A DNA stretch of 41,556 nt from an uncultured virus (IMG/VR IMGVR_UViG_3300035191_000065) (IMGVR_UViG_3300035191_000065), one strand, 5' to 3'; shown: positions 23,151 to 41,556, numbered from the stretch's first letter. Notes: generated from the letters alone by a model not told the origin. Made by a program: numbers and translations.

Positions 23151-23414
23151 ATGCAGAGCCCTGACGCCAATATGCCGAACCAGATGCCGCTCTCAGACCC
23201 GGCGACGCTCGAACCGTTCGTGGAGCAATACGCTGTCGTCATAGGTCAGCAAGAGGCGGCGCTGCATCAGCATCCGGCGCAGGCAGTCGCAAATCAAGAG
23301 CTGGCCCGGGTGCGAGAAAGCCAGCGCCCGTGGTACGTGCGGAGACGATGCGATCTCGTGGCGTGGGGAGCCATCACGGGGATGGTCATCGGCTACATCC
23401 TGAGGTCGAGATGA
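23151..23414 (+). CDS. Small C-terminally anchored protein
   Basis: Fills the gap exactly; RPWY..LVAWGAITGMVIGYIL followed by RSR. Confidence 0.7.
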   Translation: MQSPDANMPNQMPLSDPATLEPFVEQYAVVIGQQEAALHQHPAQAVANQELARVRESQRPWYVRRRCDLVAWGAITGMVIGYILRSR

Positions 23415-23938
23415 CCCCGGTCATTGAAGTCGAATGTGAGGGACGCCCCATTCGTATCCGGCTGACGCCTGAGGGTCCTGAGTTTCTCAACTACGATATT
23501 GAGCACGACATCACGCTCGTCGAGATGGGTTACGACCCGACGGAGTGCTACACGCTGTGGCATCAGCTCGTTAACGAGCCTTATTCTTTCTACAGAGACA
23601 ACGGGTTTCTTCCAGAAAGTATGGAGGCCTCTTACGCTGTTCTAACGGTTTCAATCGAAAGCATAAAACCGTCGAATCGGTTTACGCTCGAAAGAGAAGA
23701 GAACGACCGTAAAGCGCTGAACTATGACACCTGGTTTGAGGTGCAAACAATTCAAAGAGGGTATCTCGTAAGTATCCCAGATGAAGATGGATTCTTTGAA
23801 GAGCTTCGAGGGGTAAGGAAGAAAGTTGGTTACAGCAAGAAGCTGATAGATATTTGTGCATACGCCGTGTCGATAGGTGTTTTTGTGGTGGAGTTCGCTG
23901 ATGACGCACCTGCGTTGACGGTGTCCGGTAGCTGGTAA
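23411..23938 (+). CDS. LxEMGY-module protein 1
   Basis: ATGA overlap; IEVECEG..YDIEHDITLVEMGYDPTEC. Confidence 0.8.
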   Translation: MTPVIEVECEGRPIRIRLTPEGPEFLNYDIEHDITLVEMGYDPTECYTLWHQLVNEPYSFYRDNGFLPESMEASYAVLTVSIESIKPSNRFTLEREENDRKALNYDTWFEVQTIQRGYLVSIPDEDGFFEELRGVRKKVGYSKKLIDICAYAVSIGVFVVEFADDAPALTVSGSW

Positions 23939-23940
23939 CC

Positions 23941-24480
23941 ATGTGGAAGATGCGCGCCATAGAGTTCGAGTGTGACGGAAAGACTGTTCTGGTACGTCCT
24001 GGAGAAGACGGCGAGCCAGAGTTCCTCGATTACGACCTTGATCACGATGTGACGCTCGCAGAGATGGGGTATCCAGCAAGCGAGTGCCTTCAGCTTTATC
24101 GCAAGTGGTCGATAAACCCCTACTCCTTCTGCGTCGAAATGGGGCTGTTGCCACCTGCCTTCGACTTTACGCGTCCGATGCTCGTTGTACCGCGGCGTAA
24201 TCTCCCGAAGATGATAAACAGAACCGTCACTCGCATCGGTAACGCGAGCGGTCCCGACGCCAACTGGTACGATCACTACTTCGAGGGTTGGGTAAATGGA
24301 GTCGTCTTTGAGATTCCGCTCGAACCGGGGGCGCGCGAGCAGCTCTACGAAGATGCTGAGCTGGACGAGTATTTCCCTGACATCGTTGATTTTGCCATCT
24401 CGAACGAGATCGAACTCATCAACTTCATGGACCCGGTAGCCGAGCTGCTCCCAGGCTTCCCGGAGTTTGAGCAGTATTAA
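23941..24480 (+). CDS. LxEMGY-module protein 2
   Basis: IEFECDG..YDLDHDVTLAEMGYPASEC; shares PYSF and a [IV]D.[CF]A-type tail with protein 1. Confidence 0.8.
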   Translation: MWKMRAIEFECDGKTVLVRPGEDGEPEFLDYDLDHDVTLAEMGYPASECLQLYRKWSINPYSFCVEMGLLPPAFDFTRPMLVVPRRNLPKMINRTVTRIGNASGPDANWYDHYFEGWVNGVVFEIPLEPGAREQLYEDAELDEYFPDIVDFAISNEIELINFMDPVAELLPGFPEFEQY

Positions 24481-24491
24481 CCGGAGGACTC

Positions 24492-26072
24492 ATGTACGAG
24501 TACAACACAAAAGGTCGACAGCCGCTGGGTCTCATAAACCTGTCGCGTGCTCAGATCTTCAGCCAGGGCCTTGGCGCGATTCAGCCCTCAGAGGCTCAGC
24601 TCTTCAGCGGCATGGGAGCCATCCAGCCCTCCGAAGCTCAGCTCTTTGACGGGATGGGGGCTATCCAGCCCTCCGGTGCGAAGGTGTATCGATTTGGACC
24701 TGGAATCGTCCAGAGGACGAGGTCTCAGCTCGTTGGGAGCTGCGATCCATCGATCGAAGAATGCTGCGTCGGATGTCAGAACTCGGCTCTCTCTAACGTC
24801 GGAGTCGAGGAAAGGACAGGACACTCCTGGCTGTTCTGGGTTGGAATCGGCCTTGGTGTGGGCGGTGCGCTCTACTTGCTTACAAAAAGCGGCATCTTCG
24901 AAAACCCCAGGGACGTCACCGATTCCGAGGCGGCTCAGCAGGCCGCTGCACTCGCAGTGCAGGCAGGGCTTCCCACCATCCTTTGGGGGCCTCCTGGAAT
25001 AGGGAAGTCGAGCTGGCTGGAAGCCCTCGGCGAAGCGATGAACGCCGAGGTCTTTACGGTCATCGGCTCAACCAAGGATCCAGCCGACATTGGCGGCATC
25101 ATGAATCTCGAAGGCAGAACGATCCCGCCCATGTGGGCTCAGAAGATTCGCAAGCGTTCGGACCAGCGAAAGCGCTCGGTTCTGTTCCTGGACGAGTTCA
25201 CGAGCATGAGCCCGCTCGTGCACGCCGCGCTGCTTCGAGTCGTTCGGGAAAAGATCGCCGGAGAGCTGAACTTCGACCCCACTGACAGGTATGTCTCAGT
25301 TGTCGCCGCCGCGAACGCCCCCGAGGAAGGTGCAGGCTCGATGGAGCTTCCTCCTCCGGCCGCTAACCGGCTCATTCATATCAAGTGGGTGCCGCCTTCT
25401 GTTGTGGAGTGGGGAGTGGGGCTTCTTTCTTCGGAGTGGCCAAAGCCTCAGCTCCCGGCACTCCCGAGAGACTGGAAGAGGACTCGTGAGGCTGTCAGCG
25501 CAGAGGAAGACGTCGCGGCTTTCGTCGCCTATCAGCAGAGGTACATGCTGGAACTGCCTGCGACATCGGCAGCAAGAGGCGAGGCATGGCCGAGCCCCAG
25601 GAGCTGGGAGATGGCTGCGGACGCTCTGGGCGCCGCCCGAGTCGTCAACGCTCCTCCCCAGGTCATCTTCAAGCTTGTCTCTGGTGCGGTCGGGATGCTG
25701 CCAGCCAAGAAGTTCTTCGATTGGCTCAACGACCGAGACGCTGTTGATGGACGAGACATTCTCGCAGCTCCCAAGAAATATGAGGTGCAGCTAGGTCGTC
25801 CTGACGTCCTCTATGCCGCCGCAAACGCTGTCGTAAACGAGGTCAAGAAGTCGCCGTCGCGGGATGCCTGGGAGCGGGCTTGGGAGTTCATGGAGCACGC
25901 CAGGGCGAAGTCTGACAGGCCAGAGGTGCTGGCGCTCGCGGCCGACAGGCTGATGGCCTTGACCAAAGACAAGCGCTTCGTGGCAGCCATCAAGGACGCG
26001 GAGATTCCCGAAGACGAAATGCTCGATGAGTATCGCGTCGAGGGTGTTCGAGTCTTCGGAGGTCTACGATGA
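24492..26072 (+). CDS. Membrane-anchored MoxR/AAA_5-type AAA+ ATPase A
   Basis: Walker A GPPGIGKS, Walker B VLFLDEF, sensor I AAAN, Arg finger PPPAANR, PSPRSWE. N-terminal MYEY leader, repeats, TM and ENP. Confidence 0.9.
   Translation: MYEYNTKGRQPLGLINLSRAQIFSQGLGAIQPSEAQLFSGMGAIQPSEAQLFDGMGAIQPSGAKVYRFGPGIVQRTRSQLVGSCDPSIEECCVGCQNSALSNVGVEERTGHSWLFWVGIGLGVGGALYLLTKSGIFENPRDVTDSEAAQQAAALAVQAGLPTILWGPPGIGKSSWLEALGEAMNAEVFTVIGSTKDPADIGGIMNLEGRTIPPMWAQKIRKRSDQRKRSVLFLDEFTSMSPLVHAALLRVVREKIAGELNFDPTDRYVSVVAAANAPEEGAGSMELPPPAANRLIHIKWVPPSVVEWGVGLLSSEWPKPQLPALPRDWKRTREAVSAEEDVAAFVAYQQRYMLELPATSAARGEAWPSPRSWEMAADALGAARVVNAPPQVIFKLVSGAVGMLPAKKFFDWLNDRDAVDGRDILAAPKKYEVQLGRPDVLYAAANAVVNEVKKSPSRDAWERAWEFMEHARAKSDRPEVLALAADRLMALTKDKRFVAAIKDAEIPEDEMLDEYRVEGVRVFGGLR
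24549..24675 (+). repeat. About three imperfect 42-bp tandem repeats encoding AQLFxGMGAIQPS
   Basis: AQIFSQGLGAIQPS-EAQLFSGMGAIQPS-EAQLFDGMGAIQPS. Confidence 0.85.
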
Positions 26073-27532
26073 ACTATCGAGACGACAACGATGATGGGCG
26101 CTACGTAGCAGTTCGCCCTCCGCTCACTGCCCAGCAGGTCATACCCCCGCAGATGGGGGCTATCGTACCCATATACGACGACGACTCTCCGATTGCGAGC
26201 TGCGCAGGGTGTAGTAACCTCGGAACAGAAAATCCTGAGGACGGACAATTTGCTGGACGCCCCTGGTGGTTTTGGGTTGGGATCGGCGTTGGTGTTGGAG
26301 CCGGCATCTACTTCGTCAAGCGCTCCCGTATTCTTCGCAATCCCGATGAGCTGAGTGAGGCTCAGATCGCACAGCAGGCTGCTGCAATCGCCGTCCAGTC
26401 CGGTGTCCCAACCATCTTGTGGGGCGCTCCTGGTATCGGTAAAACGACCTGGCTGGAAGCTCTCGGCGAAGCGATGGATGCCGAGGTCTTCACCGTTATT
26501 GGCTCGACGAAAGACCCGGCAGACATCGGCGGCATCATGAAGCTCGATGGCTCGCTGGTCCCACCAGTTTGGGCTCAGGAGATCAGGGCCAGGGCCGATC
26601 AGGGTAAGCGCTCGGTTCTGTTCCTGGACGAGTTCACGAGCATGAGCCCACTCGTTCATGCCGCTATGCTGCGGGTGGTGCGCGAGAAGATCGCTGGGGA
26701 GCTGAACTTCGATCCGAAGAGCGGGCCGCTCCGTGGAGAGGCATGCAGTGTCGTCGCCGCCGCGAATCCGTCTGGAGAGGGTGCTGGAGCCATCGACTTG
26801 CCGCCGCCAGCGGCAAACCGGATGCTCCACATCAAGTGGCCAGAGCCCTCTGGGATCATCTGGGGTCTCGGTCTGATGCTCGGGTGGGCCAGGCCTCGCT
26901 TGTTCTCACTTCCGAAGGACTGGCGAAAGACTTCAGAGGCCATGAGCGCCAAGGAGGATATTGCGGCCTTCCTTCGTCGTCGTGAAGAGCTTTTCATGAT
27001 GATGCCGAAGACGCAGACAGAGCGCGGCCTTGCGTGGCCGAGCCCGCGAACCTGGGACATGGCGGCAGAAGCCCTCGGGGCAGGACGTGCTGTCTGGGCT
27101 CCGATGGACGTTCAGGCGCTGCTTGTCAAGGGGTGCGTGGGTGAAGGTCCAGGCGGCGAGTTCATGAACTGGATCAAGGAGAGAGACCTGCCAGACGCAG
27201 AAGAGGTCATGCTCGATCCAACCATCTGGGACGTGAAGAACGCCCGCAGCGATCAGATCTACGCTGTCGGTCAGTCGCTCGTCGCGGCGGTACAGCGAAA
27301 GCCCTCAGAAGAGCGTTTCCTTCAGGCGTGGGATGTCGTCGGTTACGTCGTCGACGAGACAAACAAGGTCGACGCAATGTTTACGACGGTCCTCGATCTG
27401 ACCAAGATCGCTACGAGTGATCGCTATCCACAGATCAAGGGCACGAAGCCGCCGAGCCGCCTGGTGAAGAAGTTCTTCCCCATGATGAAAAAGGTCGGCG
27501 TCTTGAAGGGTCTGGCGAAGAAAAAGAAGTAG
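26069..27532 (+). CDS. Membrane-anchored MoxR/AAA_5-type AAA+ ATPase B
   Basis: GAPGIGKT, VLFLDEF, AAANP, PPPAANR, PSPRTWD. N-terminal CAGCSNLG, TM WWFWVGIGVGVGAGIYFV, RNP. Confidence 0.9.
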   Translation: MNYRDDNDDGRYVAVRPPLTAQQVIPPQMGAIVPIYDDDSPIASCAGCSNLGTENPEDGQFAGRPWWFWVGIGVGVGAGIYFVKRSRILRNPDELSEAQIAQQAAAIAVQSGVPTILWGAPGIGKTTWLEALGEAMDAEVFTVIGSTKDPADIGGIMKLDGSLVPPVWAQEIRARADQGKRSVLFLDEFTSMSPLVHAAMLRVVREKIAGELNFDPKSGPLRGEACSVVAAANPSGEGAGAIDLPPPAANRMLHIKWPEPSGIIWGLGLMLGWARPRLFSLPKDWRKTSEAMSAKEDIAAFLRRREELFMMMPKTQTERGLAWPSPRTWDMAAEALGAGRAVWAPMDVQALLVKGCVGEGPGGEFMNWIKERDLPDAEEVMLDPTIWDVKNARSDQIYAVGQSLVAAVQRKPSEERFLQAWDVVGYVVDETNKVDAMFTTVLDLTKIATSDRYPQIKGTKPPSRLVKKFFPMMKKVGVLKGLAKKKK

Positions 27533-27534
27533 GG

Positions 27535-28275
27535 ATGGCCATTGTCACGGAGATACGCTGCGGAGGTGGAGTACACGAGGTCGAAGTAGACCGCGGTGGA
27601 TTAACCATCTTCGATTTTGACTACGACGAGGAGGCCGTTCTCGTCGAGATGGGTTACTCCGGTAGCCCCTGCTACCAGGCTATCAACTTCTACCCCACCA
27701 AGCCTCTCTACGTCCTCATGATGCTTCAGAGGGGGCTTTGGGCAACGGAAGATTACGGAGTCGGCATTCTCCCATACGAGGCCTGGGTGCAGCTAGGGAT
27801 TGACTATGTCCATCACATCGATTGGGTATTCTCTGAACGCGGGCAGCAGCAGCACTTTGAAATGTTCGCGGAGGCTGAGCACCCCTGGTTTTACAGTGCC
27901 GTGAGAGCGGTAGAGGGTTCGCTGGAGGGTCGTTTTACAACGATGATGCTCGACAAGGTTCGGAAAAACCTTCGAGATCAAGGGCTGTATGTCGGTCATC
28001 CACCTGCTGCGTACCACGCCAATAAAAGTGCCGTTCAGCTCATCAACGCTGCAGAGTGGCTCGTTGCCATCTCGCTACCAAAGGTTCGGGCAAAGGCCGA
28101 AAAGAACTTTTTCAAGTACATCTTCGAGGTCAGCTCGCAAGCACAAGAGGCCGTGAGGAACAAGGCCATTCAGGAGAACGAAGATCCTGACAAGGCGGAG
28201 ATGGAAGAGAAGAAGTGGCAGCTCGATCACACGCTCGACTTCATCGAGCGATACCATGAGGAGACGTCACCATGA
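27535..28275 (+). CDS. LxEMGY-module protein 3 (helical C-domain)
   Basis: EIRCGG..EEAVLVEMGYSGSPC; tail EKKWQLDHTL. Confidence 0.85.
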   Translation: MAIVTEIRCGGGVHEVEVDRGGLTIFDFDYDEEAVLVEMGYSGSPCYQAINFYPTKPLYVLMMLQRGLWATEDYGVGILPYEAWVQLGIDYVHHIDWVFSERGQQQHFEMFAEAEHPWFYSAVRAVEGSLEGRFTTMMLDKVRKNLRDQGLYVGHPPAAYHANKSAVQLINAAEWLVAISLPKVRAKAEKNFFKYIFEVSSQAQEAVRNKAIQENEDPDKAEMEEKKWQLDHTLDFIERYHEETSP

Positions 28276-30005
28276 CGATTCGAATGATCAACCCAGGAAG
28301 GCCTCGAAGGGGGCGAAACCCTGGTGACCCATATGAGCTGGTGCGGGCAGCGCGCCTTTTTCTGCTCAGGGCATCGCAGCGGCCCTATCTCGCGACAGCA
28401 GCGATGACGCTTCGCATGGTGCACGACAAAAGCATCCCGACAGCGGCTGTCGATTCGAGCTGGCGGATGTACTTCAACGATGAGTTTTTGGACAGGGCAG
28501 GTGTCGAAGCTGGCGCGGCTGTCATGGAGCATGAGCTGTGGCACCTGCTCCGTCGTCACGGAGAGCGCGCCCGAAAACTGAACGTGCCCCGCGATCTGGC
28601 GAAGGTCTGGAACTTCGCGGCAGACGCGGAGATCCATTCTGACGATACGCTCGTGAAACGGCTCAAAGAGATTCCTGGATTCGAGCCGATCACTCCAGAG
28701 AGCTTCAACTTCGAAAAGGGGCTGCTGGCGGAGGAGTATTACGAAATGCTCCTCGAAGCTCCAAAGGGCGATGTCTTCGGTGAGACGCCTGACGGCGACG
28801 TCAAGGTGTACAAGCGAACCATCATCAAGGTGAAGAAGCCTGGGAAAGAACCGCCTCCCGAGCCGCCGCAAGAAGGAGAAGAAGACGAGCCGCCGCCAGT
28901 TGGTCCTCCGCCGGATCCGGTTATTGTCTATGAGTACGAAGAACCCTGGACAGGAGAGCGGCCTCCAGGGACGAAACCTCCTTATGTCATTTACGATCCT
29001 CGCCTGCCTCAAGAAGGAGAAGAAGGCGTAGGAGAGAGAGGTCAGCCGGTAGAGGGCGAAGGTGATTTCGAAGAAGGCGAAGGTGAAGGCGAAGGCGAAG
29101 GTAAGAGCGCTGAAGACAAGTACGACGAGGGAGAGCAGGTCGAGCAGGGGCAGACCACAGGTGGTGAGCCTAGCTCCACGCCGCATGTCGGAGAGGGCGA
29201 TTGTGGTTCATCCGCAACTGGTATCCCGGCTCCCTGGGAGGATGAGCCCGACGACTTCGTTGATCGATCGCAAGAGGACTTCATCCGAAAAAAAACGGCC
29301 GACAAGGTCATCGAGGAGTCAGCTACGGGTCGTGGAACGGGCGTGGGCTCGACAATAGTTCAGTGGGCCGAAGAAGAGCTTTCGCCATCTGCGGTGAATT
29401 GGCAGCAGCAGCTCCGAAGCGCTGTCTCGAACGCTATCAACTTTGTGGCAGGTTCTTTCGAGTTCTCTCGCCGTCGCGTGAGCCGGCGCCAATGGCACCA
29501 GAAAGACATTCTACTCCCAGGCCTCGTTCACCCTGTGCCTGAGGTGGCAATCATCATCGATGTCTCCGCCTCGATGTTCGCCGCGTTCAACGATGGCAGC
29601 GCCAAGGCGAAGGGGAATTACACGCTCCTCGAACAGGCGATGGGAGAAGTTGCAGAAATTGTCAGGCAGTTCGGTTCGACGATAGGTGTCAGTGTCTTCG
29701 CGACGGACACGACGGTCTCGTGGACTGGTCGGATTTTTAACCCGTCTGACATTCAGAAGTATCTGAGTGAGGCAAAGATCGGCGGCGGAACAGACCTGAC
29801 AGTTGGGATGAACGCTGCCTATCATTCGCAGCCCCGCCCGAACATCATGGTAGTCCTGACGGACGGTGGCACTCTCTGGCCCGACTCTCCGCCGCCCAAC
29901 ATGCGGGTTGTTATCGGTATCGTCGGAAGCGATGAGGCGCAGATGGAGAGGTGGGGCGGAATACCACCGTTCGGTGATGTCATCTACATCACCTCTGGCA
30001 AGTGA
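28272..30005 (+). CDS. DUF2201-type putative metallopeptidase with vWA domain (MoxR partner)
   Basis: PTAAVD..HELWHLLRRH (HExxH)..WNFAADAEI; Pro/Glu/Gly-rich linker; DCGSSATG; MIDAS DVSAS, GGGTD, VLTDG. Confidence 0.9.
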   Translation: MTIRMINPGRPRRGRNPGDPYELVRAARLFLLRASQRPYLATAAMTLRMVHDKSIPTAAVDSSWRMYFNDEFLDRAGVEAGAAVMEHELWHLLRRHGERARKLNVPRDLAKVWNFAADAEIHSDDTLVKRLKEIPGFEPITPESFNFEKGLLAEEYYEMLLEAPKGDVFGETPDGDVKVYKRTIIKVKKPGKEPPPEPPQEGEEDEPPPVGPPPDPVIVYEYEEPWTGERPPGTKPPYVIYDPRLPQEGEEGVGERGQPVEGEGDFEEGEGEGEGEGKSAEDKYDEGEQVEQGQTTGGEPSSTPHVGEGDCGSSATGIPAPWEDEPDDFVDRSQEDFIRKKTADKVIEESATGRGTGVGSTIVQWAEEELSPSAVNWQQQLRSAVSNAINFVAGSFEFSRRRVSRRQWHQKDILLPGLVHPVPEVAIIIDVSASMFAAFNDGSAKAKGNYTLLEQAMGEVAEIVRQFGSTIGVSVFATDTTVSWTGRIFNPSDIQKYLSEAKIGGGTDLTVGMNAAYHSQPRPNIMVVLTDGGTLWPDSPPPNMRVVIGIVGSDEAQMERWGGIPPFGDVIYITSGK

Positions 30006-30742
30006 GCGATGGGGGTGAACTCGTGTCCTTCGTACTTGCTGCCCGATGCGACGACCAAATCGTCGATGCCCAAGTCGACGATGACGGCGATTTGACCCTC
30101 GACTACGACCTCGAAGAAGACATCGCGCTCGAAGAGATGGGGTATCCAGCGTCGGACTGCCTTAGTCTCGTCCGAGAGTTCGAGGATGAGCCCGTCAAGG
30201 CTCTTCTCAGTAATGAGGCGTTGCTCATTCCTGAGGCGGATAGGGTGCTGTTGGCGATTGGCATAGCGGACCATGCGATCGAGAGATTCGGGAGGTATCA
30301 CGGAAAAGACTATTTTTCGGACTCTCCTGAAAAAAGACTCGCTTTGAGAGACATCATTATGATGTCCGGAAATATAACGAGGGCTTCACAGGCTTATCGC
30401 TTGCTTGAAAGAGCAAGGGGGGAGGTAAAACTCGCCGAGCATCGCAAGGATGTTTCTGAAGCAGACAAGGCTTTCAGAATCGCCTACAGCGATGAGCTGA
30501 TCGCCACTGCCGTCCGAGAGGCGATGAAGGCTCTTCATGCTCACCTCTACGGACATACACAGCTCGCCGGGCCAGCTCCCGTGCTTGTGCGGAAGTTTTC
30601 GCAGGACACAGCGTCTTATACAAGGCAGTCAGCGACGCAGCAGGGTATGGCTGAGCGAGACCAGAAAGCTTACGGCAACGAGTACCAATGGCAGCTCGAC
30701 TACATTCTCGACTATTTTTCTGACCAGGAGGATGAGGAATGA
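30002..30742 (+). CDS. LxEMGY-module protein 4 (helical C-domain)
   Basis: GTGA overlap; DYDLEEDIALEEMGYPASDC; tail EYQWQLDYIL. Confidence 0.85.
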   Translation: MSDGGELVSFVLAARCDDQIVDAQVDDDGDLTLDYDLEEDIALEEMGYPASDCLSLVREFEDEPVKALLSNEALLIPEADRVLLAIGIADHAIERFGRYHGKDYFSDSPEKRLALRDIIMMSGNITRASQAYRLLERARGEVKLAEHRKDVSEADKAFRIAYSDELIATAVREAMKALHAHLYGHTQLAGPAPVLVRKFSQDTASYTRQSATQQGMAERDQKAYGNEYQWQLDYILDYFSDQEDEE

Positions 30743-31503
30743 GTATCTTCCTGCAGCTCCCCTGCGAAGAGGATGGTCTCGCCACCATCGAAATTACGAG
30801 CGATGGTGAGATGGTTTTTGTCGACTACGACATCGAGCAAGATGTTGTCCTTGAAGAGATGGGCTACGAGACGCCTCTGTGCCTTGAAATACTGAGGGAG
30901 TGGGAGAGGGCGCCGATCGATTTTCTCTGTCGCTCTGACATCATTCCGACAAACCTCCTCGGCTTCGTCACCTGTCAATGGGCTGCCGAGGCATTAGCGC
31001 GAAACGAGGCGTTGCTCAACCAGAGCATCGGATGCGTCAAGCAAATGAAATCTCTCCTCGGAGCGTGTCGACGTTTTTGGTCCGCGAAGAGGGGAATGCC
31101 GCTCAAGCGAGTCTACTCGGCGAAACAGCAGGTATTTGATTGCTGGAACGCCTATGTCAACAAGAGGCGAGAGAGCTTTGCGGGGTCGAACTGGCGCCCA
31201 CCTTTTGCAGGTGAGAGGACGCTCGATGCAGTTCTCGGTTGTGCATCGGTGATTGCCGAGTATGTCAACGAGATCGAAATGGTGGGCGGTCTTCAAACTC
31301 CGCTACAGCTCCCCTGCGAGGTGGCAAAAGCAGCAATGCAATCCATAGTCATCCACTATCCAACGGTCGCATCGCATCGCCACCCATTTGAATCAGATCA
31401 CAAAATATTCACCGAGTCAGTCTGGATGATCCAGGAGGAGATCGATGAGGTGAATCAGAAGCTGGCGCTCGCAGCGCTCAGGGTTCTCGAAAGGCACGGC
31501 TGA
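30739..31503 (+). CDS. LxEMGY-module protein 5
   Basis: LPCEEDG..DYDIEQDVVLEEMGYETPLC. Confidence 0.85.
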   Translation: MSIFLQLPCEEDGLATIEITSDGEMVFVDYDIEQDVVLEEMGYETPLCLEILREWERAPIDFLCRSDIIPTNLLGFVTCQWAAEALARNEALLNQSIGCVKQMKSLLGACRRFWSAKRGMPLKRVYSAKQQVFDCWNAYVNKRRESFAGSNWRPPFAGERTLDAVLGCASVIAEYVNEIEMVGGLQTPLQLPCEVAKAAMQSIVIHYPTVASHRHPFESDHKIFTESVWMIQEEIDEVNQKLALAALRVLERHG

Positions 31504-32348
31504 TGGGCATTCTGCTGAAGATAGAGTGCGACGGCGAGATTCAGAACGTGGAGGTGACAGGATCTGGAGACCTCGTCTTTGAGGAGTTCGACATCGAAGA
31601 CGCGCTTGTTCTCGTCGAGATGGGTTACGAGCCTGACCTCTGTGCAAAAACCTATCTCAAGTGGCAGACCAATCCGTTTAAAACACTGTTCGCGCTATTC
31701 AGGTGGGAGGACAACGAATACTGGACGTCGGGGCCTTGGTACGACATCAAGGCAGAAACCGGCTTCATTTGGGTGAAGCGAGCGCTCACCATTCTCAAGA
31801 AGATCGGAAGCCCACCGTTTGTCGTCGCGCACCCAATAGCCTCTTACTTCCGCGGTGGCGAAGATGAGCCGGATTACTACCAGGTCGACCCAGTGGAGTG
31901 GGTTGAGGGGCTCAAGGAGATCTACGGAGAGCTGTACGATTTCGATCCAGACCTCGGAACCGACGACAGAAAGGCGAAGAGAGACCTCGAAAAGCACAAC
32001 AGGTTTATGGGGCGCGCGGTCAGCGACGCAAACTTTGAGCAATCAGAGAAGAACGATATTCCTTGGAAGACGGACTACTCACGCTACCCACAATTTGTCC
32101 TCAAGGCCAGGTTCTATGCCGCCAGTGCGCTCTTCGCCCTTGGTCAGATGATCAGAAATGACAACGATGCCCGACTCGAAAGAGCACACTCAAATTTCGA
32201 GGAGATCCAGAAGTATATCGGCCTCGCCGCCATCTACGAGGCCGCACTGGACGGAGCCACGAAGTCAGAAGCGGCTGACTTTTCCTATGAGACGCGCCGG
32301 CAGCTCATCGGTCAGTTCGTCCAGGTTCTTGAACGGAGGCATTCATAG
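31503..32348 (+). CDS. LxEMGY-module protein 6
   Basis: IECDG..FDIEDALVLVEMGYEPDLC. Confidence 0.85.
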   Translation: MGILLKIECDGEIQNVEVTGSGDLVFEEFDIEDALVLVEMGYEPDLCAKTYLKWQTNPFKTLFALFRWEDNEYWTSGPWYDIKAETGFIWVKRALTILKKIGSPPFVVAHPIASYFRGGEDEPDYYQVDPVEWVEGLKEIYGELYDFDPDLGTDDRKAKRDLEKHNRFMGRAVSDANFEQSEKNDIPWKTDYSRYPQFVLKARFYAASALFALGQMIRNDNDARLERAHSNFEEIQKYIGLAAIYEAALDGATKSEAADFSYETRRQLIGQFVQVLERRHS

Positions 32349-33118: not shown

Positions 33119-34197
33119 TGGCCTACGAAATAAAAATCGGCGACTTCGACGCGATAATTCATGACGACGGAAGTCTCGAAGTCCCTGGCTATGACCCGGA
33201 GGAGCAAGCTGTCCTTGCCGAGATGGGCTATGAGCTGGGACTCGACTATTGGATTGTTAAGTCGTGGGACCTCGTTCTCCAGGCCCTCAAGGAAGAAGGG
33301 CAGCTCGATGATTTCATCGAAGCGCTTCAGGGAAAACGCACCCAGTACGATTATTACGTCGGACGAAGCCTGTGGCCGTTCGACATCGATGATGTCAAGA
33401 GTGCCCTTGTCCTCGCTCTTCAGCACTACATGAACAAGGAATACACGGACGACGCCGTTGCGGTCGCCAGCGTCATCAAGGAGATGCCGTGGTCCCTGAA
33501 TGATATGCCAGAGATAACGGTAGAGTCGCATCTCAGCGAAGACCAATTCGGGTATCCGCGAGTGGTTCGATACGAGACACATCGGCTGATGATCGACGGA
33601 GAGGAAATTGCTCAGTGGGAGCACGCTGTTGAGAGGTCGTCGTACAGCTACAAGTATTTTGATTCGGATCTGACAGACCTCAGAGAAGCTGGGCTTGAGA
33701 TTGGCCCTGAAATGGTCGAAGGGCTCACAGAAGTTCTTGAAGCGCTTGGTCTTGAAGATGAAGAGCCAGAGGGGCCAGACGAAGACGATCTTTACGTTCC
33801 CAGGCCAGAAGACGAAGACAGCGACGAGCTATTCGGGGTGATGTACGAAGAGATGACCTATTGGCATCCGACCAAGGGGAAGCTCGAAGAACCCGAGGTT
33901 GAGGTCGAGGTCGTCATTTACGCCAGAGAAAGCGACGCAAGCGAAGCGGCTGCACTGGCGCAAAAGATGATAGGAGAAACAGGAGACAGTGTAGAGGTGT
34001 CTCTTGTGCGGCGTCGTACTCCTTCTGAAGAGGCCGAGGACATCGAAGAGGCCAAAGACCGTGCCGCGCTGAGACGTCAGTACAGGCTTTTCAACGGTGG
34101 CGCTACCCAGGAGGTCGAAGAGCCCGATCCCATCTATCTGGAGTGGCGCCCCCTGGAAGAGAACTGGCAAGATCGTCCTGAGGATTTTGAGGGCTGA
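33118..34197 (+). CDS. LxEMGY-module protein 8 (acidic subfamily)
   Basis: DDGSLEVPGYDPEEQAVLAEMGYEL; very Asp/Glu-rich. Confidence 0.85.
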   Translation: MAYEIKIGDFDAIIHDDGSLEVPGYDPEEQAVLAEMGYELGLDYWIVKSWDLVLQALKEEGQLDDFIEALQGKRTQYDYYVGRSLWPFDIDDVKSALVLALQHYMNKEYTDDAVAVASVIKEMPWSLNDMPEITVESHLSEDQFGYPRVVRYETHRLMIDGEEIAQWEHAVERSSYSYKYFDSDLTDLREAGLEIGPEMVEGLTEVLEALGLEDEEPEGPDEDDLYVPRPEDEDSDELFGVMYEEMTYWHPTKGKLEEPEVEVEVVIYARESDASEAAALAQKMIGETGDSVEVSLVRRRTPSEEAEDIEEAKDRAALRRQYRLFNGGATQEVEEPDPIYLEWRPLEENWQDRPEDFEG

Positions 34198-34199: not shown

Positions 34200-34925
34200 A
34201 TGAGCGTGGTCCTTGAAATATTCTGCGACTACGAGGGAAGGTCCAAAGAGTTCGAGATCACTCGCGGCCTCGATATCACCATCCTTGATTTTGATGAGGA
34301 AGAGGCCATTGTCCTCGAAGAGATGGGCTACAATGTCCATCCTTGCCTCAACCTCAAGCGTGTCATGCAAGACCAGCCAGCGGTCCTCGTCATTAACCTC
34401 ATTGATTCTGGGCTCGATGCTGATTTGTTGCTTCGGATTGGAGTGGAGCAATTGGAGCGAGTCATCCCTTGCTGGGCAGCGGTTCATCCAAAGCGCGATG
34501 AGCCCCAGCAAATTATTGGGATGGTTAAGGCTGTTCTAAGCGGCGAACATGTTGACGAGGAAGAGATTGACGAGCTTGAGTCCGATCTCGTCATAGCATG
34601 CGATGATGCGGCGGCAGATGCTTGGAGACGAGGATCCAAAGACGACGATAGGGCAGCGAAAGCGGCCTGTAACGCGGCACTCGACCTCATCAGAATGGCC
34701 CGTCTTTTTCATATTCGCCCCTGGTATTTTCCTCGCGGCGCACAGTCAAAATATGAGAGGCGCATAAAGGATGTACTGGGAAAGTGTGTCGGGGCAGTTC
34801 AGGAAAAGGCTGATTTTCAGGGTAAAGATCGAACGAAAGCAGGGACTAGAGAAAACGCCTGGCAGGCGAGCCGGCTCATCGAGCTGCTCGAAGAGCAGCA
34901 ACTGGAAGAAGATTTTTCTGACTGA
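34200..34925 (+). CDS. LxEMGY-module protein 9 (Imm5-like helical C-domain)
   Basis: DFDEEEAIVLEEMGYNVHPC; ERVIPCWAAVHPKRDEPQQII..AVLSG; Ala-rich helices; ENAWQASRLIELL. Confidence 0.8.
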   Translation: MSVVLEIFCDYEGRSKEFEITRGLDITILDFDEEEAIVLEEMGYNVHPCLNLKRVMQDQPAVLVINLIDSGLDADLLLRIGVEQLERVIPCWAAVHPKRDEPQQIIGMVKAVLSGEHVDEEEIDELESDLVIACDDAAADAWRRGSKDDDRAAKAACNAALDLIRMARLFHIRPWYFPRGAQSKYERRIKDVLGKCVGAVQEKADFQGKDRTKAGTRENAWQASRLIELLEEQQLEEDFSD

Positions 34926-34937: not shown

Positions 34938-35984
34938 ATGGCGCTGAGAGTCAAGATTCCCTGTGAGCTGGTCGAAGAAGGCGAGGTCGAAGCGATTGTC
35001 TCTCTCGATGACCCCTACAGCAACTCATTTCTCGTCGAACTGCCAGAAGAGATCGACGTGGATGAGCACCTCACCCTCGCCGAGATGGGCTACGATCTCC
35101 CCGACTGCGTCCAGTTCAAGGTGGACGTCGAGAAGGGTCATGGTCTCAGAAACATCTTTTCCAAAGAGGAGTACTTCCAGGCATTCTTCGAGGCCATCGA
35201 GGCGCAGGGACCGCAGGCAATCGGAGACAAGGAGACCTGGGAGGTCGACGAAGAAGCTGTCGCTGGTGCATTAGCTATTCTTCTCGTAGATGCGATGGCC
35301 CATGGCTCGGACGTCAAGACGGACATGGACTTCGAGCTGGTTGTTGAGATCATCAAAGAACACTGGGAGGGGTTCTTCAAGACAAACGCCTACCATGACA
35401 AGGAGATGGAGCTGGTTCGGCTCGCCTACGAGAATGAGGAGCATGACTTCATCAAAAAGCTCGATGAGGTCACCCAGTCGACGCTATACGAGGTGAACGT
35501 ACAAGAGACGTCGTCTTCGGACGGCCCAGGACATGCGAAGGTCATGGGGTTCGTCACACTGACAGTCGGTGAGGAGACCGTAGATGAGTGGGACGTTTGT
35601 TATCTCGGATACGTAGACCTCGAAATGCTCGATTGGGAAGTCGAGCAGTGCGACGAGCACGGGGAGCCCACGGCGACGGCCGAAGATTTTCTCGACACTA
35701 TGGGAGAAGGAACGGACTTCGAGTCCGAGTTTCGTCTTTACGAACCTGATGTCCCCTACGATGAGGGTGAGGGCCGATATTCGGTTTTCGTTAACGATGT
35801 AAGGGTCGCGACGTTTGACGACTACAGCGATGCTGACAACCTCTTTGACGCCCTCGAAGATTCAAGGGACGTGCAGAACAAGCATGACTCCATTGCTTTG
35901 ATGGAACTCGACGACGAGCTAGATCCTGAAGAGGACGACATCGACCTCGACGATCCAGGTAACTACTTCACGATGAGGTCGTAG
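34938..35984 (+). CDS. LxEMGY-module protein 10 (acidic; close paralog of 11)
   Basis: IPCEL..IDVDEHLTLAEMGYDLPDC. Confidence 0.85.
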   Translation: MALRVKIPCELVEEGEVEAIVSLDDPYSNSFLVELPEEIDVDEHLTLAEMGYDLPDCVQFKVDVEKGHGLRNIFSKEEYFQAFFEAIEAQGPQAIGDKETWEVDEEAVAGALAILLVDAMAHGSDVKTDMDFELVVEIIKEHWEGFFKTNAYHDKEMELVRLAYENEEHDFIKKLDEVTQSTLYEVNVQETSSSDGPGHAKVMGFVTLTVGEETVDEWDVCYLGYVDLEMLDWEVEQCDEHGEPTATAEDFLDTMGEGTDFESEFRLYEPDVPYDEGEGRYSVFVNDVRVATFDDYSDADNLFDALEDSRDVQNKHDSIALMELDDELDPEEDDIDLDDPGNYFTMRS

Positions 35985-37032: not shown

Positions 37033-38163
37033 ATGTCTCCCATCCACGCAACTCTGACCCTGAACCTTTGGGACGAAGACAACGAGGAAGTGGTTCCCGT
37101 CGAGGTGCACTACCTCATGGATCGCACCCTGGACGTGGGCGATTTCGATCTGGAAGAAGCTATCGTCCTCGAAGAGATGGGCTACGAAACCTCGCCGGTT
37201 CTTGGAATCGTCAGGGCGCTAGAGAAGTACGAGAAAGATTTTTTCGACGCGCTCAAGAAGGTGAGGCCGAGGACCAAGCTCACGGCTGAACAAACAGCAC
37301 AGCTCGTCTCCAAGATTCTCTTCAAGCGGTTCTTCGAGGGGACCGATTCCGACGAGTCCGACTGGGATGCACAAGAAGCTCACTACGCGATCCTTGGCGA
37401 AGACGAATACGTGAGGCAAGGCATCCTCCTGCTCAAGGATCGCATCGCTGAGGAGCAGGCAGGGAAGAGATTTTACGGAAAAGGTGAATCGGGCGAGGTC
37501 GCGCAGATGCTTGAGCCCTACCTCGTCGAACCAGACCACATGGAGGTCGAGGTTCGTCATCAGGGCTATCGCGACGTCTACGATCCGAATGTCATGTCAT
37601 GGAACAACATCCTCGATGCTCGCTACTGTCTTGTCATCTCGGACATCGAGGTTGCGTGCTGGTCTCGCACCCTTGAATTCAGGATATATGACCCCGTCGG
37701 ATTCAACGGGGAGGTCGTTGACTGGGGCGAGGAGTGGGGCATCGAAGAAGCGAAGCTGCCCGATAACGTCAGCGGTGTGCTGAATGAGCTTGGCCTTGAC
37801 GAGCCTGAGCTGGAAGACCCAGAGCCGCCCGATTATCCCATGAAGGCGACAGCCAAAGATCCCCATCCTTGGCACGGGGTGCTCTACGAGATTGACCCAG
37901 CGGGATGGAAGCCTGACGCACCCGTTGAATACACGGTCGTTCCGTATGACACGCTATTCCATGCCACCGAGGCGAAGGAACTTTCGGAGACGATTGTCGA
38001 ACATGAAGGCGACTCCCCAATCCGTGCGATGTGGCTGGTAAGAGAAAAGTCCGCAGATGAGCGTCGCGAGGATGAATTGCTGGAAAGACAGGGTGTTCTT
38101 TTCGAGTTCGAGGAGCCTCCGGAATGGACCAAAGACTGGGTCATACTGGAGGACGAGGATTAG
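37033..38163 (+). CDS. LxEMGY-module protein 12 (acidic)
   Basis: ATG 37033, 2 nt after the upstream stop; DFDLEEAIVLEEMGYETSP. Confidence 0.85.
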   Translation: MSPIHATLTLNLWDEDNEEVVPVEVHYLMDRTLDVGDFDLEEAIVLEEMGYETSPVLGIVRALEKYEKDFFDALKKVRPRTKLTAEQTAQLVSKILFKRFFEGTDSDESDWDAQEAHYAILGEDEYVRQGILLLKDRIAEEQAGKRFYGKGESGEVAQMLEPYLVEPDHMEVEVRHQGYRDVYDPNVMSWNNILDARYCLVISDIEVACWSRTLEFRIYDPVGFNGEVVDWGEEWGIEEAKLPDNVSGVLNELGLDEPELEDPEPPDYPMKATAKDPHPWHGVLYEIDPAGWKPDAPVEYTVVPYDTLFHATEAKELSETIVEHEGDSPIRAMWLVREKSADERREDELLERQGVLFEFEEPPEWTKDWVILEDED

Positions 38164-38166
38164 CAG

Positions 38167-39318
38167 ATGCCACTGACAATCATATTGCCCTTCGAGGAAG
38201 AAGACGGAGAAGATATCGACGTCGAGATCGATATTTCAGCGGACGGTACCATCGAAGTCCGCGGCTACGATATCGAAAATGCGCTCACCCTCAATGAGAT
38301 GGGCTACGAAGTCGAGGACGAGCCGTTCGAGTTCTACCAGGCGTTCACGGAAGGTGCGGAGGGTGGTCCCGTCACTGCGCTCAAGAACCTTCTCCTGCAC
38401 GGCGTCTATGACGACGATTGGGCAGATGCCCTAGCCGATGCTATCGAAGAGCAGGGCATTGAAGAGTACGGCCCAGAGTTCAAAGCAGAAAAACTGTTCA
38501 GCGTGCTCATCGAGCAGCAGCTCAAGGGCAAACGAGATGTCGAAGACTTGATCGTCTCTGTGATTGGTGAGGACCGATTCAAGGAACTGCTGATCGAGCG
38601 GCTGAAGCAAGAGGCTGGAAAACACGGCTTCGATGGCGTCTATGCTGAAGAGCTTGCCAGCCTGCTTTCGACGAGGCTTGAAGAGGGCGCTCGCATAGAG
38701 TCCTCGTGCTTCCACGCCTACGGACTTGAGGACTGGGAAAGCCGGCTCGATTGCGAGTACACCCTTGTTGTTGACAATGAAGATATCGCTAGTTGGAAGC
38801 GGGCGATCGAGAAGCGAATCTTCGATCCTATTCACTTTTATAGCGAAGCCACTGACTGGGAAGAGTATGACGCCGCTGGACACACCATTGGTCAGGGGTT
38901 GTCAGATGCTCTCAATGGCCTTGGACTGGAAGAGCCCGGTCCTGAAGAGGAGGAGGTCGAAGAACCAGACCACCCCACGCCGGCCGATGACGAATTTCTG
39001 GCGGACTACGGTGTCCTCTACACCATCTACGACACGAAGTGGGTTTCAGGTGAGGGCGACGTTCGCCTTGGCGTCGATGAGGAGGTCGTCGTTGCCTATA
39101 ACGAGCTTCACGAAGCGAGAGACGCAGTGTGGCTTTCCGAGGCGATCATCAGGCGCGACGGTGAACAGAAGAAGTATGACATCGCGCTGCTGCGCAAGAA
39201 GACTGACGAGGAGATAGAGGAGGAAGAATTTCGGGCGCGACAGGAGTCACTGTTCGAGGAGGAAATTCTTGACCGTCCAGACTGGATGGATGAGTGGGCT
39301 CTATTGGAGGATGAATGA
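38167..39318 (+). CDS. LxEMGY-module protein 13 (acidic; paralog of 12)
   Basis: GYDIENALTLNEMGYEV; shares RI[YF]DP, LGL.EP, GVLY, RQ..LFE and P.W...W..LEDE with protein 12. Confidence 0.85.
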   Translation: MPLTIILPFEEEDGEDIDVEIDISADGTIEVRGYDIENALTLNEMGYEVEDEPFEFYQAFTEGAEGGPVTALKNLLLHGVYDDDWADALADAIEEQGIEEYGPEFKAEKLFSVLIEQQLKGKRDVEDLIVSVIGEDRFKELLIERLKQEAGKHGFDGVYAEELASLLSTRLEEGARIESSCFHAYGLEDWESRLDCEYTLVVDNEDIASWKRAIEKRIFDPIHFYSEATDWEEYDAAGHTIGQGLSDALNGLGLEEPGPEEEEVEEPDHPTPADDEFLADYGVLYTIYDTKWVSGEGDVRLGVDEEVVVAYNELHEARDAVWLSEAIIRRDGEQKKYDIALLRKKTDEEIEEEEFRARQESLFEEEILDRPDWMDEWALLEDE

Positions 39319-40055
39319 TCTTCGAGGTCGAATGCGGTGGGGAGGAGTACGATGTCGAGCTGAAGCCCGACGGTGAGATCCTCACTGATTATCCTTTTGA
39401 GGAAGAAGCAACGCTCGTCGAGATGGGATATGAGCCATCCGAGTGCTTTTCCAAGTTCGTTTTAATCGACAATTGGCCAGTGCAGTTCCTGATCGAGTTC
39501 ATAGTGCAGTCACGCACCCTGACCGTGCTCCTCGGTTTGGATTTCGCTGAGTATGTCATCCCTGTTTTTGGCCGTCTTTATCCCGATGAGCTTACAGCGC
39601 TGCTGCGGAAAGCCGTGAGTATCGGTCGCGAGAAAGCTGTTTCAGGGGCTTCGTTCCAGGCCCTCATAGATGCAAAGGCGCAGGTTCAGAAAATAGAAAG
39701 AAAATTTGCCAGAGAATACGAATATCCAGGGAAACCATCTCGATACACATCGATGATGACATTGGTCGGCAAGCAGGTCGGTAATGGGGCCACGATGTCA
39801 GTCCGTCAAGCTCTCAATGCTGTCCAGAGGTTGGTTGGCTCGGGGGGTGTGCTTCCAATCAGAGGAGGCGTCTTCGGGGCATCGAATTACGCCCACATCA
39901 ACGCGTCAATGTTCCCATCTTGGTCAAAAAAGACAACGCTATGGCAGATCAAACGCATCTACAAGGTGATGGACGCTGAGTTGAAAGGCAAACCGTACCC
40001 CCAAATGACGTTTCCGTCCGTGATGCCCTGGGAAACGGGAGACTTTGGACGATGA
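39315..40055 (+). CDS. LxEMGY-module protein 14 (Imm5-like helical C-domain)
   Basis: VECGGE..EEEATLVEMGYEPSEC; LDFAEYVIPVF..YPD; LWQIKRI. Confidence 0.8.
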   Translation: MIFEVECGGEEYDVELKPDGEILTDYPFEEEATLVEMGYEPSECFSKFVLIDNWPVQFLIEFIVQSRTLTVLLGLDFAEYVIPVFGRLYPDELTALLRKAVSIGREKAVSGASFQALIDAKAQVQKIERKFAREYEYPGKPSRYTSMMTLVGKQVGNGATMSVRQALNAVQRLVGSGGVLPIRGGVFGASNYAHINASMFPSWSKKTTLWQIKRIYKVMDAELKGKPYPQMTFPSVMPWETGDFGR

Positions 40056-41140
40056 ATTACTCGGGCGTCGAATTCGTGATCGACGAGAGCGACCTCATCT
40101 CGGAGATGGTCTTCTGCTACGTCTCACAGGAAGGACTCGACGTCGCCGGCTACACACAGGAGGAGCTTGAGGAAGAGATCGTACTCGGCGAGATGGGTTA
40201 CGAGCTGTCGCCGATTGCAGAGCTTGTCCAGAGCTACAACGAACACGGGCTCGCTGCATTGTTCGTCGACCCAGGGAGGCTCAACTCGTTCTTGGAGAAC
40301 GCGGACCCGAAAACGATCGAGGCGCGGTACGGTCCAGAGTGGGAAGAGGACATCACCGAGGCGGTGTTTCACATTGTCAATTATTTCGAGGTGGACTGGG
40401 AAAACCAACGAGACATCTTGAAGAAGCTCGGCGGGCTCGTCAGTCAGACGACAGTGTTTGAAATACGTCCTGAGGATGGTGGAAATATGACCATCGAGGA
40501 GGGGGCCGAAATGCCTGGTTCCTTGGTGGAGGGAAAGTGCCGGGCATCTCTGCAGATTGGCGGCAAAGAGGCGGTCTCCTGGAATGAGTGGTATTACGGC
40601 AAGTACGAGGGAGACTTCGTCAACGATAGCGTCGAGTGGTCATCTGGCCTGGATGACGAGACTACCTTCAAAGAGCTGGATGAGCAGCGCAACCTGAAGG
40701 CATTGCTCAACGGGATCACGGGCGGATACAAGGGGTCGTGCGAGCTGGAGGAGCCCTGGGTCTATCAAGGCTGGGAGTACTCTCCGCTTGAAGGACAGCA
40801 TGACGGGCGATGGGCCGTGTCCATCGCTGAACCCTTTGAAATCTTCTTCGCTTACTACAACAGCGAAGAGGCTGCTCGTGCAGCGCTTGACTACATTGAT
40901 CGGTTTATTGTCAATCCCCGTAGTGGGAGCTGGGTACGATTCGTGTTGCGTGCGAAAAAAACAAACCCTTCCCCTCCGGTGTTTGAAATTGATGACGACT
41001 TCGACTACATGGACCCCGGCAAGATCTTTATGGTGAGTCCAGACTGGGAGATTGTCTCTAAAACACGAAAGATTACCCGCCATAAGAGCGCTGGAGGAGC
41101 AAAGTTATCAAGTAAGTCGTTCTGGGTAGAGGTGGACTGA
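40052..41140 (+). CDS. LxEMGY-module protein 15 (acidic)
   Basis: LEEEIVLGEMGYELSP; LQIGGKEAVSW..LEEPW..GRWAV resembles proteins 10 and 11. Confidence 0.85.
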   Translation: MNYSGVEFVIDESDLISEMVFCYVSQEGLDVAGYTQEELEEEIVLGEMGYELSPIAELVQSYNEHGLAALFVDPGRLNSFLENADPKTIEARYGPEWEEDITEAVFHIVNYFEVDWENQRDILKKLGGLVSQTTVFEIRPEDGGNMTIEEGAEMPGSLVEGKCRASLQIGGKEAVSWNEWYYGKYEGDFVNDSVEWSSGLDDETTFKELDEQRNLKALLNGITGGYKGSCELEEPWVYQGWEYSPLEGQHDGRWAVSIAEPFEIFFAYYNSEEAARAALDYIDRFIVNPRSGSWVRFVLRAKKTNPSPPVFEIDDDFDYMDPGKIFMVSPDWEIVSKTRKITRHKSAGGAKLSSKSFWVEVD

Positions 41141-41556
41141 TGGGACTCGTCCTGAGGATGCCAGAAGATGGCAAGCGCATCGAGCTGCTTCCAGGCCGCT
41201 GGATCGGCAAGACCGACTTCAGTGACGAGGACGCCGAAGAAGCGCTGGTCCTCGAAGAGATGGGCTATCCGCTGCCGCTGTGGGCTCGCATCACAAGGGC
41301 CTACACCGAGCATGGAATAGATGATGGTATCGCCACCGACATCGAGATGATCCGCGTCGTCGACGATGCGGTTCAACAACAGGGAATCGGCAAAAAATGG
41401 ACGGGAGACGAGCCCGCGGAGCTGATCGAGCTTGGTTGGAGGCGAAACTTCATCGAGCGGGCCATCGAGCGAGGGCACGACGACGGCGTCTACATCGGGC
41501 AGAGGAAGATGCCACTCGAAGAGGCTGCAGAGCTGTGGGTAACGGAGGCAAGGAGC
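41140..41556 (+). CDS. LxEMGY-module protein 16 (3' truncated; not in the ORF track)
   Basis: TGATG coupling. My translation: MGLVLRMPEDGKRIELLPGRWIGKTDFSDEDAEEALVLEEMGYPLPLW..., open to the window end. Confidence 0.85.
   Translation, partial: MGLVLRMPEDGKRIELLPGRWIGKTDFSDEDAEEALVLEEMGYPLPLWARITRAYTEHGIDDGIATDIEMIRVVDDAVQQQGIGKKWTGDEPAELIELGWRRNFIERAIERGHDDGVYIGQRKMPLEEAAELWVTEARS

Follow-up and report, generated by a model that had tools for sequence, protein, structure and literature searches.

In the RavA-ViaA and CbbQ-CbbO systems (PMC3893208, PMC4660213), an AAA+ ATPase of the MoxR type acts with an adaptor containing a von Willebrand factor A (vWA) domain, which bears a metal ion-dependent adhesion site (MIDAS) and recruits specific client complexes; as described there, each system serves a single dedicated client, lacks a peptidase domain and is without an exchangeable partner family. 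The present analysis concerns a window of 41,556 nt (the whole stretch of DNA analysed) from the uncultured virus IMGVR_UViG_3300035191_000065, in which two MoxR-type ATPase genes and one gene for a zincin-like metallopeptidase with a vWA domain lie among 16 genes whose products share an unnamed N-terminal domain, hereafter the module. The module recurs in phages as a third partner, linked in the genome to the pair formed by an AAA_5 ATPase and a DUF2201_N/DUF2201 protein, and the 16 genes can be read, at about even odds (roughly 50%), as a lineage-specific expansion of the module that provides the third, target-selecting component of a phage MoxR-vWA-zincin machine.

A three-part composition of this kind is found in the VMAP/iSTAND MoxR-vWA ternary conflict systems (Kaur, Burroughs, Iyer and Aravind 2020, PMC7159879), where a MoxR ATPase and a vWA protein are accompanied by a third component in which one element is constant and the rest, which is non-enzymatic, varies greatly. 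By comparison with the systems covered in the consulted sections of that work, the third component of the window has a different, unnamed N-terminal domain, is located on phage-like elements and occurs in 12–16 copies, and the vWA protein has an N-terminal zincin domain instead of C-terminal effectors. A VMAP-C or inactive-STAND third component was not matched in 19 proteins by Pfam, which is understood to hold VMAP models, at E ≤ 0.01. The same two core genes as in the window (phrog_1297 and phrog_1314), the vWA protein having its domains in identical order, form the MoxR plus metallopeptidase-vWA pair of group 2.2 jumbo phages, for which a role as virion-assembly chaperone was proposed (Iyer et al. 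2021, PMC7824862) and which was recovered in 65/80 of the viral loci considered below. That pair consists of two genes, and the consulted part of the paper mentions no third component or array; the window differs also in the N-terminal transmembrane (TM)-like anchor of its ATPases and in the early and DNA-metabolism genes that surround its relatives. Tandem arrays of small ankyrin or all-helical Imm-type proteins are known from polyimmunity loci with Imm5 and Imm-ank proteins (Zhang et al. 2012, PMC3482391); as far as the consulted part of that paper describes them, these Imm proteins are without the N-terminal module and are unlinked to MoxR-vWA genes.

Both enzyme families and a variable third partner for cellular MoxR-vWA systems are thus already known, and the novelty lies in the module family, which descends from a Cys-His-His-Cys form, is statistically linked to MoxR-DUF2201 pairs of phages and has expanded to 16 or more copies. 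In titles and abstracts on phage MoxR-vWA pairs, DUF2201 and anti-defence, and in the consulted parts of some of these papers, no module family or paralogue array was found beside them, which is weak evidence, the searches not having been aimed at the module itself.

Organization of the Array

Coding in the window is nearly all on the plus strand, and from 23411 to the window end 19 tightly packed, co-directional genes follow one another, 16 of which encode the module; the other three, two AAA_5 ATPases and one zincin-vWA protein, are interleaved with them. At the 19 gene junctions the spacing ranges from -4 to +12 nt, as expected for a single coupled run. The genes are as follows, with the class referring to the C-terminal part.

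23411..23938, + strand: module protein 1, 175 amino acids (aa), class A; L.EMGY at aa 36; 33% identical to 23941 over 168 aa
23941..24480, + strand: module protein 2, 179 aa, class A
24492..26072, + strand: MoxR-type AAA+ ATPase 1, 526 aa; AAA_5, phrog_1297
26069..27532, + strand: MoxR-type AAA+ ATPase 2, 487 aa; AAA_5, phrog_1297
27535..28275, + strand: module protein 3, 246 aa, class B; best window match of the viral-only model (2.7e-08)
28272..30005, + strand: zincin-like metallopeptidase and vWA protein, 577 aa; DUF2201_N, DUF2201, VWA_2, phrog_1314
30002..30742, + strand: module protein 4, 246 aa, class B
30739..31503, + strand: module protein 5, 254 aa, class B; the structurally modelled protein
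31503..32348, + strand: module protein 6, 281 aa; class B tentative, since BLAST to paralogues ends by residue 74 and covers the shared N-terminal part only
32351..33118, + strand: module protein 7, 255 aa, single C-terminus
33115..34197, + strand: module protein 8, 360 aa, class C, very acidic (pI 4.1)
34200..34925, + strand: module protein 9, 241 aa, class B; Imm5 (PF14423) 21.1 bits, below the cut-off of 25
34938..35984, + strand: module protein 10, 348 aa, class D; 46% identical to 35987 over 351 aa
35987..37030, + strand: module protein 11, 347 aa, class D
37033..38163, + strand: module protein 12, 376 aa from ATG 37033, class C; frame open from GTG 36961, the start being picked for its 2-nt spacing from the preceding stop
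38167..39318, + strand: module protein 13, 383 aa, class C
39315..40055, + strand: module protein 14, 246 aa, class B
40052..41140, + strand: module protein 15, 362 aa, single C-terminus
41140..41556, + strand: module protein 16, 139 aa visible, cut by the window end

The preliminary description of this DNA, made from the sequence, had proposed 16 proteins with a common N-terminal module in which L-x-EMGY is invariant and Cys frequent, encoded by genes interleaved with the ATPase and vWA genes in one coupled run, belonging to no named family and ending in unrelated C-terminal classes; these points hold, the last one roughly. In fact, L.EMGY is located at residues 34–47 in 16/16 module open reading frames (ORFs), all on the plus strand, and EMGY occurs 16 times in the three plus frames, never in the minus frames and nowhere before nt 23,522. 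The module is about 45–60 residues in size, ending in L-x-E-M-G-Y, and in the alignment of the 16 N-termini (A1) only L, E, M, G and Y are invariant, with a mean column identity of 34%. The flanking Cys residues were counted by eye in 11/16 proteins each, and in the alignment to the hidden Markov model (HMM) in 10/16 (Cys1) and 11/16 (Cys2). The DNA of the copies is 60–78% identical in the 45-nt motif region and the motif is written with four Gly, two Tyr and three Leu codons, so that the motif is kept by selection on the protein; the copies are old, and at this level of identity recent duplication or gene conversion was dropped as an explanation.

BLAST of the C-terminal parts separates at least five classes, in rough agreement with the unrelated classes proposed previously, although about one third of the proteins share one helical domain type. 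Class A comprises 23411/23941, class B, with the helical C-terminal domain, 27535, 30002, 39315 and 30739/34200 (31503 only tentatively), class C 33115/37033/38167 and class D 34938/35987; 32351, 40052 and 41140, the last cut by the window end, have single C-termini. The array proteins are strongly acidic (pI 4.0–5.5) and, this acidity being limited to them, a halophile proteome was dropped as an explanation.

The window stretch is present nearly unchanged in contigs from four further wetland metagenome runs, which contain no joints within the array. At 37153-37188, 32367-32399, 40220-40253 and 41223-41255, contigs of the same metagenome runs match only the motif core of about 35 nt and diverge on both sides, and the flanks of one of them appear, on translation by eye, to encode P0016-like residues; other module genes of related elements thus co-occur in these communities. 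No phage hallmark genes were recognised in the window by Pfam and PHROG scans, and the element is presumed to be viral or phage-like; the longest contig carrying its proteins measures 165,556 nt.

A Module Without a Family Name

The module is a domain of about 60 residues made of three short strands followed by two to three helices. Its working definition, an N-terminal β-β-β-α-α unit with Cys1 in strand 1, a Gly turn between the helices and then Cys2, with His/His in the ancestral form, is matched by 16/16 window proteins. No known family matched the 16 window modules in Pfam (E ≤ 10), PHROG or NCBIfam, and the viral versions described below have no Pfam or PHROG name either. SWIM zinc fingers occur beside some cellular MoxR-vWA operons. 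This identity was rejected because the CxCxnCxH signature is absent: Pfam gives no zinc-finger family for the 16 window modules (E ≤ 10), and the ligand order is C-x4-H ... H ... C. Likewise, in 18 viral module proteins at E ≤ 0.1 no SWIM was matched, the lone zinc-finger match being zf-MYST (E 0.025), at chance level and outside the module.

The profile search envisaged in the preliminary description was carried out with A1 against 1.84 billion cluster representatives and returned 100 matches at E ≤ 1e-3, nearly all beginning at residues 1–15 of proteins of 140–380 aa; P0011 and P0081 are false positives of the profile. In the wider family the motif is relaxed to about [LA]-x-E-[LMF]-G, and on these alignments L-x-EMGY is a signature of the window lineage only. 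Among the 94 matches whose C-terminal continuation was scanned, 22 have ankyrin repeats, 7 Imm5_like (3 above cut-off) and 3 DUF5983_C, and about 60 are unnamed; Imm5_like matches occur in relatives, and the window proteins stay below the Imm5 cut-off. In particular, P0002, a close relative of module protein 1, matches DUF5983_C (PF19419) with 53.5 bits, and P0006 is a copy of module protein 15 with about one residue changed, on a 71-kb contig of another source.

Structure comparison gave weak leads. The model of 30739..31503 has a predicted template-modelling score (pTM) of 0.86, module and C-terminal domain forming a single confidently predicted unit, and the single-sequence AF2 model of 23941 was unusable (pLDDT 44). 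Foldseek against the PDB found nothing at E ≤ 1e-3, the BFVD structure search returned weak rows only, including an Imm-5-like protein at probability 0.75, the VIA structure-match rows span mainly residues 58–205, and the Atlas provided weak Imm5_like leads only, for 27535, and none for class C, module protein 13 included. Searches at the DNA level were also poor in members: tblastn with five module proteins matched no GenBank phage, three degenerate DNA patterns found the module in no viral contig, and the degenerate pattern gave 48 loci in metagenomes, 6 of them true by HMM, and 29 matches in 185,579 species genomes, none a true member.

Module genes are clustered also elsewhere. A phage record of 170 kb, 94% complete, has 13 module matches, 12 of which lie at 160.9–169.3 kb around the pair, and is a second independent array around the machine. 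L028 has 15 consecutive module genes in 11.5 kb, L002 and L045 have five, three of which when scanned proved to have ankyrin C-termini, L033 has three, and L044 two, one of whose proteins matches Imm5_like. The L028 array is bordered on one side by an IS605 OrfB-type gene and on the other by a DNA methylase and several small CxxC-rich proteins.

Linkage to the MoxR-vWA Pair

Co-occurrence with AAA_5 and DUF2201 genes, which had been predicted for the module, was evaluated in 80 viral contigs fetched with the vWA-protein alignment, where the vWA query matches 78/80 and the ATPase query 65/80 loci. The module HMM, iterated on these loci, detects 35 ORFs in 19/80 loci, all on the strand of the vWA gene and at 0–5,762 nt from it (median about 100 nt); two further loci with weak module scores bring the count to 21/80. 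Often it is the module gene that separates the ATPase gene from the vWA gene. The controls were clean, with no match in 4,024 ORFs of 71 unrelated loci and none in 8,940 reversed ORFs. Of 23 module matches in five whole phage records, 21 are located at the ATPase-vWA locus, a complete 94-kb genome among these records contributing 2/2. In a FastTree phylogeny of 84 vWA proteins the module-linked ones are distributed over at least 8 clades yet clustered, the label changing 12 times versus a mean of 18.9 on shuffling (0/500 shuffles as low). No module fused to a vWA domain was found in 120 vWA homologues.

The viral vWA-adjacent modules and those of the window recognise each other reciprocally. 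A model built on the viral versions only (A5), run against 292 window ORFs, retrieves 6/16 modules at E ≤ 1e-3, one more at 0.0017 and nothing besides, and hhalign of A1 with A5 gives a probability of 97.6% (E 2.6e-12); by these profile comparisons the two groups are homologous. The closest NCBI relatives of the viral versions are annotated as 'hypothetical protein' of Thermoanaerobacterium, and these NCBI proteins are matched by the module protein of a provirus that contains a homologous cluster and is thereby a possible test bed.

Stand-alone modules of 83–100 aa are located beside the vWA gene in L095, L114, L120 and L085, indicating that the module is a unit in its own right. These bear on the explanation that the module proteins are clients or pro-proteins, which the machine folds, activates or cleaves, for example by removing the module, with release of varied effectors. 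Such a relationship predicts the same linkage data as a target-selecting component; moreover, the vWA protein has an intact HExxH peptidase motif, and zincin-type peptidases that process small, rapidly diverging precursors are described beside MoxR-vWA systems in the consulted part of PMC7159879. However, stand-alone modules have nothing to release, the modelled protein forms one confident unit and, in the wider family, nothing like a conserved cleavage site is seen after the module, so that a client or precursor role is considered unlikely.

The neighbours at seven annotated module-positive loci are mostly early or DNA-metabolism genes and few are structural; they comprise ParB-like, DNA methyltransferase, Gam, anti-restriction, DNA ligase, Ku-like, helicase, DnaC-like loader, primase and RNA polymerase beta genes, and host takeover thus fits better than virion assembly. 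The pair might nonetheless be a virion-assembly chaperone with a processing protease, and the module a targeting or propeptide segment on packaged or assembled proteins. The cleavage motif of the T4 prohead protease resembles L-x-E, and the upstream genes of the window have another common N-terminal motif. A role of this type is also the one proposed, in the consulted part of the source, for the pairs of group 2.2 jumbo phages (PMC7824862). Against it stand the replication, recombination and anti-restriction genes around the module-positive loci, the position of the motif inside a confidently folded domain and the lack of conservation of Leu and Glu in the linked homologues, on account of which T4-type L-x-E cleavage or capsid targeting was dropped; the virion role as a whole appears highly improbable.

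Other genes recur at these loci. A second family of middle genes between the ATPase and vWA genes, with the N-terminal pattern Y-D-I-P ... N-P-S ... R-x-N-L-S-x-W and no Pfam match, is present at L090:8696-9241, L091:9397-9975, L125:8495-9190, L139:8116-8814 and L151:6117-6701. At two of the module-positive loci the gene immediately downstream of vWA encodes a DUF6744 protein (L078:11178-12125, L079:8816-9673). DUF3150 was found in none of the 35 ORFs scanned around the ATPase-vWA pair, most of which lie between both genes.

Conserved Residues and a Putative Zinc Site

Occupancy of the main columns was compared in the viral vWA-adjacent homologues (n=35), the window modules (n=16) and the metagenomic representatives (n=101).

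Cys1: viral 35/35; window 10/16; metagenomic 75/101
His1: viral 35/35; window 2/16; metagenomic 21/101
His2: viral 26/35, with 9 more shifted by a few residues; window 1/16; metagenomic 21/101
Cys2: viral 35/35; window 11/16; metagenomic 74/101
Glu of L-x-EMGY: viral 5/35; window 16/16; metagenomic 84/101
Gly of L-x-EMGY: viral 18/35; window 16/16; metagenomic 99/101

The Cys-His-His-Cys set of the vWA-linked relatives, spaced as C-x4-H ... H ... C, is probably a zinc site. In the window modules both His positions are replaced by Val and Tyr, and this lineage is probably a degenerate form that has lost the set and is metal-free. The proposal that the invariant Glu is a ligand of the vWA MIDAS finds no support in this comparison, since the residue is rarely retained beside vWA genes whereas the Cys/His/His/Cys set is conserved there.

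These residues also bring in the explanation of the module as a small domain of zinc-finger type with a regulatory or nucleic-acid-binding role, and of the array as a series of independent anti-defence or immunity-like proteins that share an early-gene neighbourhood with the pair and make no direct contact with it. The nearly complete Cys and His columns of the vWA-linked versions, followed by K/R-rich stretches, are in line with it, as are the resemblance of the C-terminal domains to immunity-type proteins and the L028 array, which has no pair in view. Neighbourhood sharing does not predict, however, adjacent same-strand genes in 19–21 loci over at least 8 vWA clades, with 21/23 copies at the locus, and acidic window modules without both His residues are a poor fit to a DNA binder; independent regulators of this sort are judged distinctly unlikely.

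The ATPases and the Zincin-vWA Protein

Both ATPases match AAA_5 (36.3 bits for ATPase 1 and 31.0 for ATPase 2; cut-off 22) and phrog_1297 (1.7e-42 and 9.2e-43), bpMoxR scoring 18.4 bits, below its cut-off of 27. The Walker A (GPPGIGKS / GAPGIGKT) and Walker B (VLFLDEF) motifs can be read in both sequences, which are 52% identical over 417 aa by BLASTP. Before the ATPase domain each has an N-terminal extension with one hydrophobic, Trp/Gly-rich, TM-like segment, which looks like a membrane anchor; in ATPase 2 this segment is PWWFWVGIGVGVGAGIYF. The N-terminus of ATPase 1 consists of an MYEYN leader, a threefold repeat of about 14 aa, a Cys-rich stretch and the TM-like segment, and at 24567-24650 its extension contains a tandem 42-nt repeat (repeat family D13) encoding G-[AL]-I-Q-P-S-E-A-Q-L-F units. 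Four small proteins encoded at 21369-23147 combine a Cys motif of the GCLGCGLG type with a hydrophobic segment rich in Trp and Gly (PWWVWGVGGV...) and are similar to the N-terminal anchors of both ATPases, as if the anchor were a mobile module.

The vWA protein matches in Pfam DUF2201_N (89.2 bits, cut-off 23.2, aa 35–418), then DUF2201 (44.6 bits, cut-off 26.4, aa 451–573), as well as VWA_2 (27.9 bits) and phrog_1314 (5e-36). The histidines of its HExxH motif (H87, H91) and the MIDAS residues D430, S432, S434, T507 and D531 are invariant in 25/25 aligned relatives, and the Glu of the motif (HELWH) was read directly from the sequence. Between the two halves of the zincin domain, at about 28780-29260, there is an acidic, Glu/Gly/Pro-rich low-complexity insert, and at 29071-29084 contigs of other runs have small in-frame and out-of-frame length differences. 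The pair of ATPase and zincin-vWA protein is widespread in phages, and ATPase 2 in tblastn against GenBank phages matches 64 records at <60% identity; in the search for related loci, ATPase 2 as a single query found no viral relatives.

A Proposed Third, Target-Selecting Component

According to the preferred reading, in which the array is the target-selecting component of the machine, the constant N-terminal domain would couple each protein to the ATPase, vWA and peptidase machine by docking, and the variable C-terminal domains, which are Imm5-like or DUF416-like helical bundles in the window and ankyrin repeats or DUF5983_C in the relatives, would be protein-binding modules that choose its targets. 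Early in infection the machine may in this way act on various host (or phage) proteins, remodelling or cleaving them, with a role in host takeover or counter-defence.

A number of observations weigh against this reading. At 59/80 vWA loci no module is detectable, the module was found in 0/3 MoxR loci of cultured phages (VBP47, phiFa, S-TIM54), and the genomic context of the approximately 100 metagenomic relatives lies outside the linkage set. In L028 no ATPase or vWA gene occurs in the 15.2 kb (15,190 nt) examined of a 26-kb contig, so that embedding of these genes in an array is not obligatory. The Glu and Gly that are invariant in the window are poorly kept in the linked homologues (5/35 and 18/35); the latter are basic, with K/R-rich stretches after the module, in contrast to the very acidic window proteins, and the two groups need not act alike. 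Finally, the pTM of 0.86 points to a module packed against the C-terminal domain of the same protein instead of hanging free.

A bolder form of the preferred reading is programmable phage targeting, in which one AAA+/vWA/zincin machine would be served by a library of up to 16 exchangeable receptors, each joining a constant docking domain to a variable ankyrin, Imm-like or other binding domain, which capture proteins of host defence or housekeeping so that these are unfolded or cleaved. This form is tentative and rather doubtful; if true, it would give viruses of prokaryotes an equivalent of the families of substrate receptors that serve ubiquitin ligases in eukaryotes and poxviruses. In favour of the preferred reading, the consulted part of a 2025 preprint (10.1101/2025.11.20.689424) reports that phage Bas54 requires its MoxR ATPase gene to get past a predicted defence system.

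Few uncharacterised ATPase modules are as common in phages as the MoxR-vWA pairs, and a conserved partner domain offers a concrete handle on their clients. In particular, module arrays with binding-type C-termini name candidate adaptors or clients, and positions open to mutation are provided by the Cys/His set of ancestral-type modules and, in the window, by the E-M-G-Y turn. If the module proteins are indeed adaptors, this would account for the action of a single phage machine on many host targets and would define a new class of counter-defence or takeover device.

The Upstream Region

The PADLOC defence-system scan gave no meaningful match. In the first 23 kb of the window, Pfam matches are limited to a sulfotransferase-like match below cut-off, a family-2 glycosyltransferase and a DUF5661 protein (337-2797 and 12101-12487). 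At least 8 genes upstream of the array, together with ATPase 1, begin with a second common N-terminal motif, M-x-Y-E-Y-[MN]-T-G-[LM]-G, for which no family was recognised; the corresponding ORFs start on the plus strand at 3301, 5167, 7351, 9053, 9578, 19297, 21794, 22761 and 24489. Examples are MTYEYMTGLG, MYEYMTGMG and MYEYNTKG, and the motif might be a sorting, processing or packaging signal.

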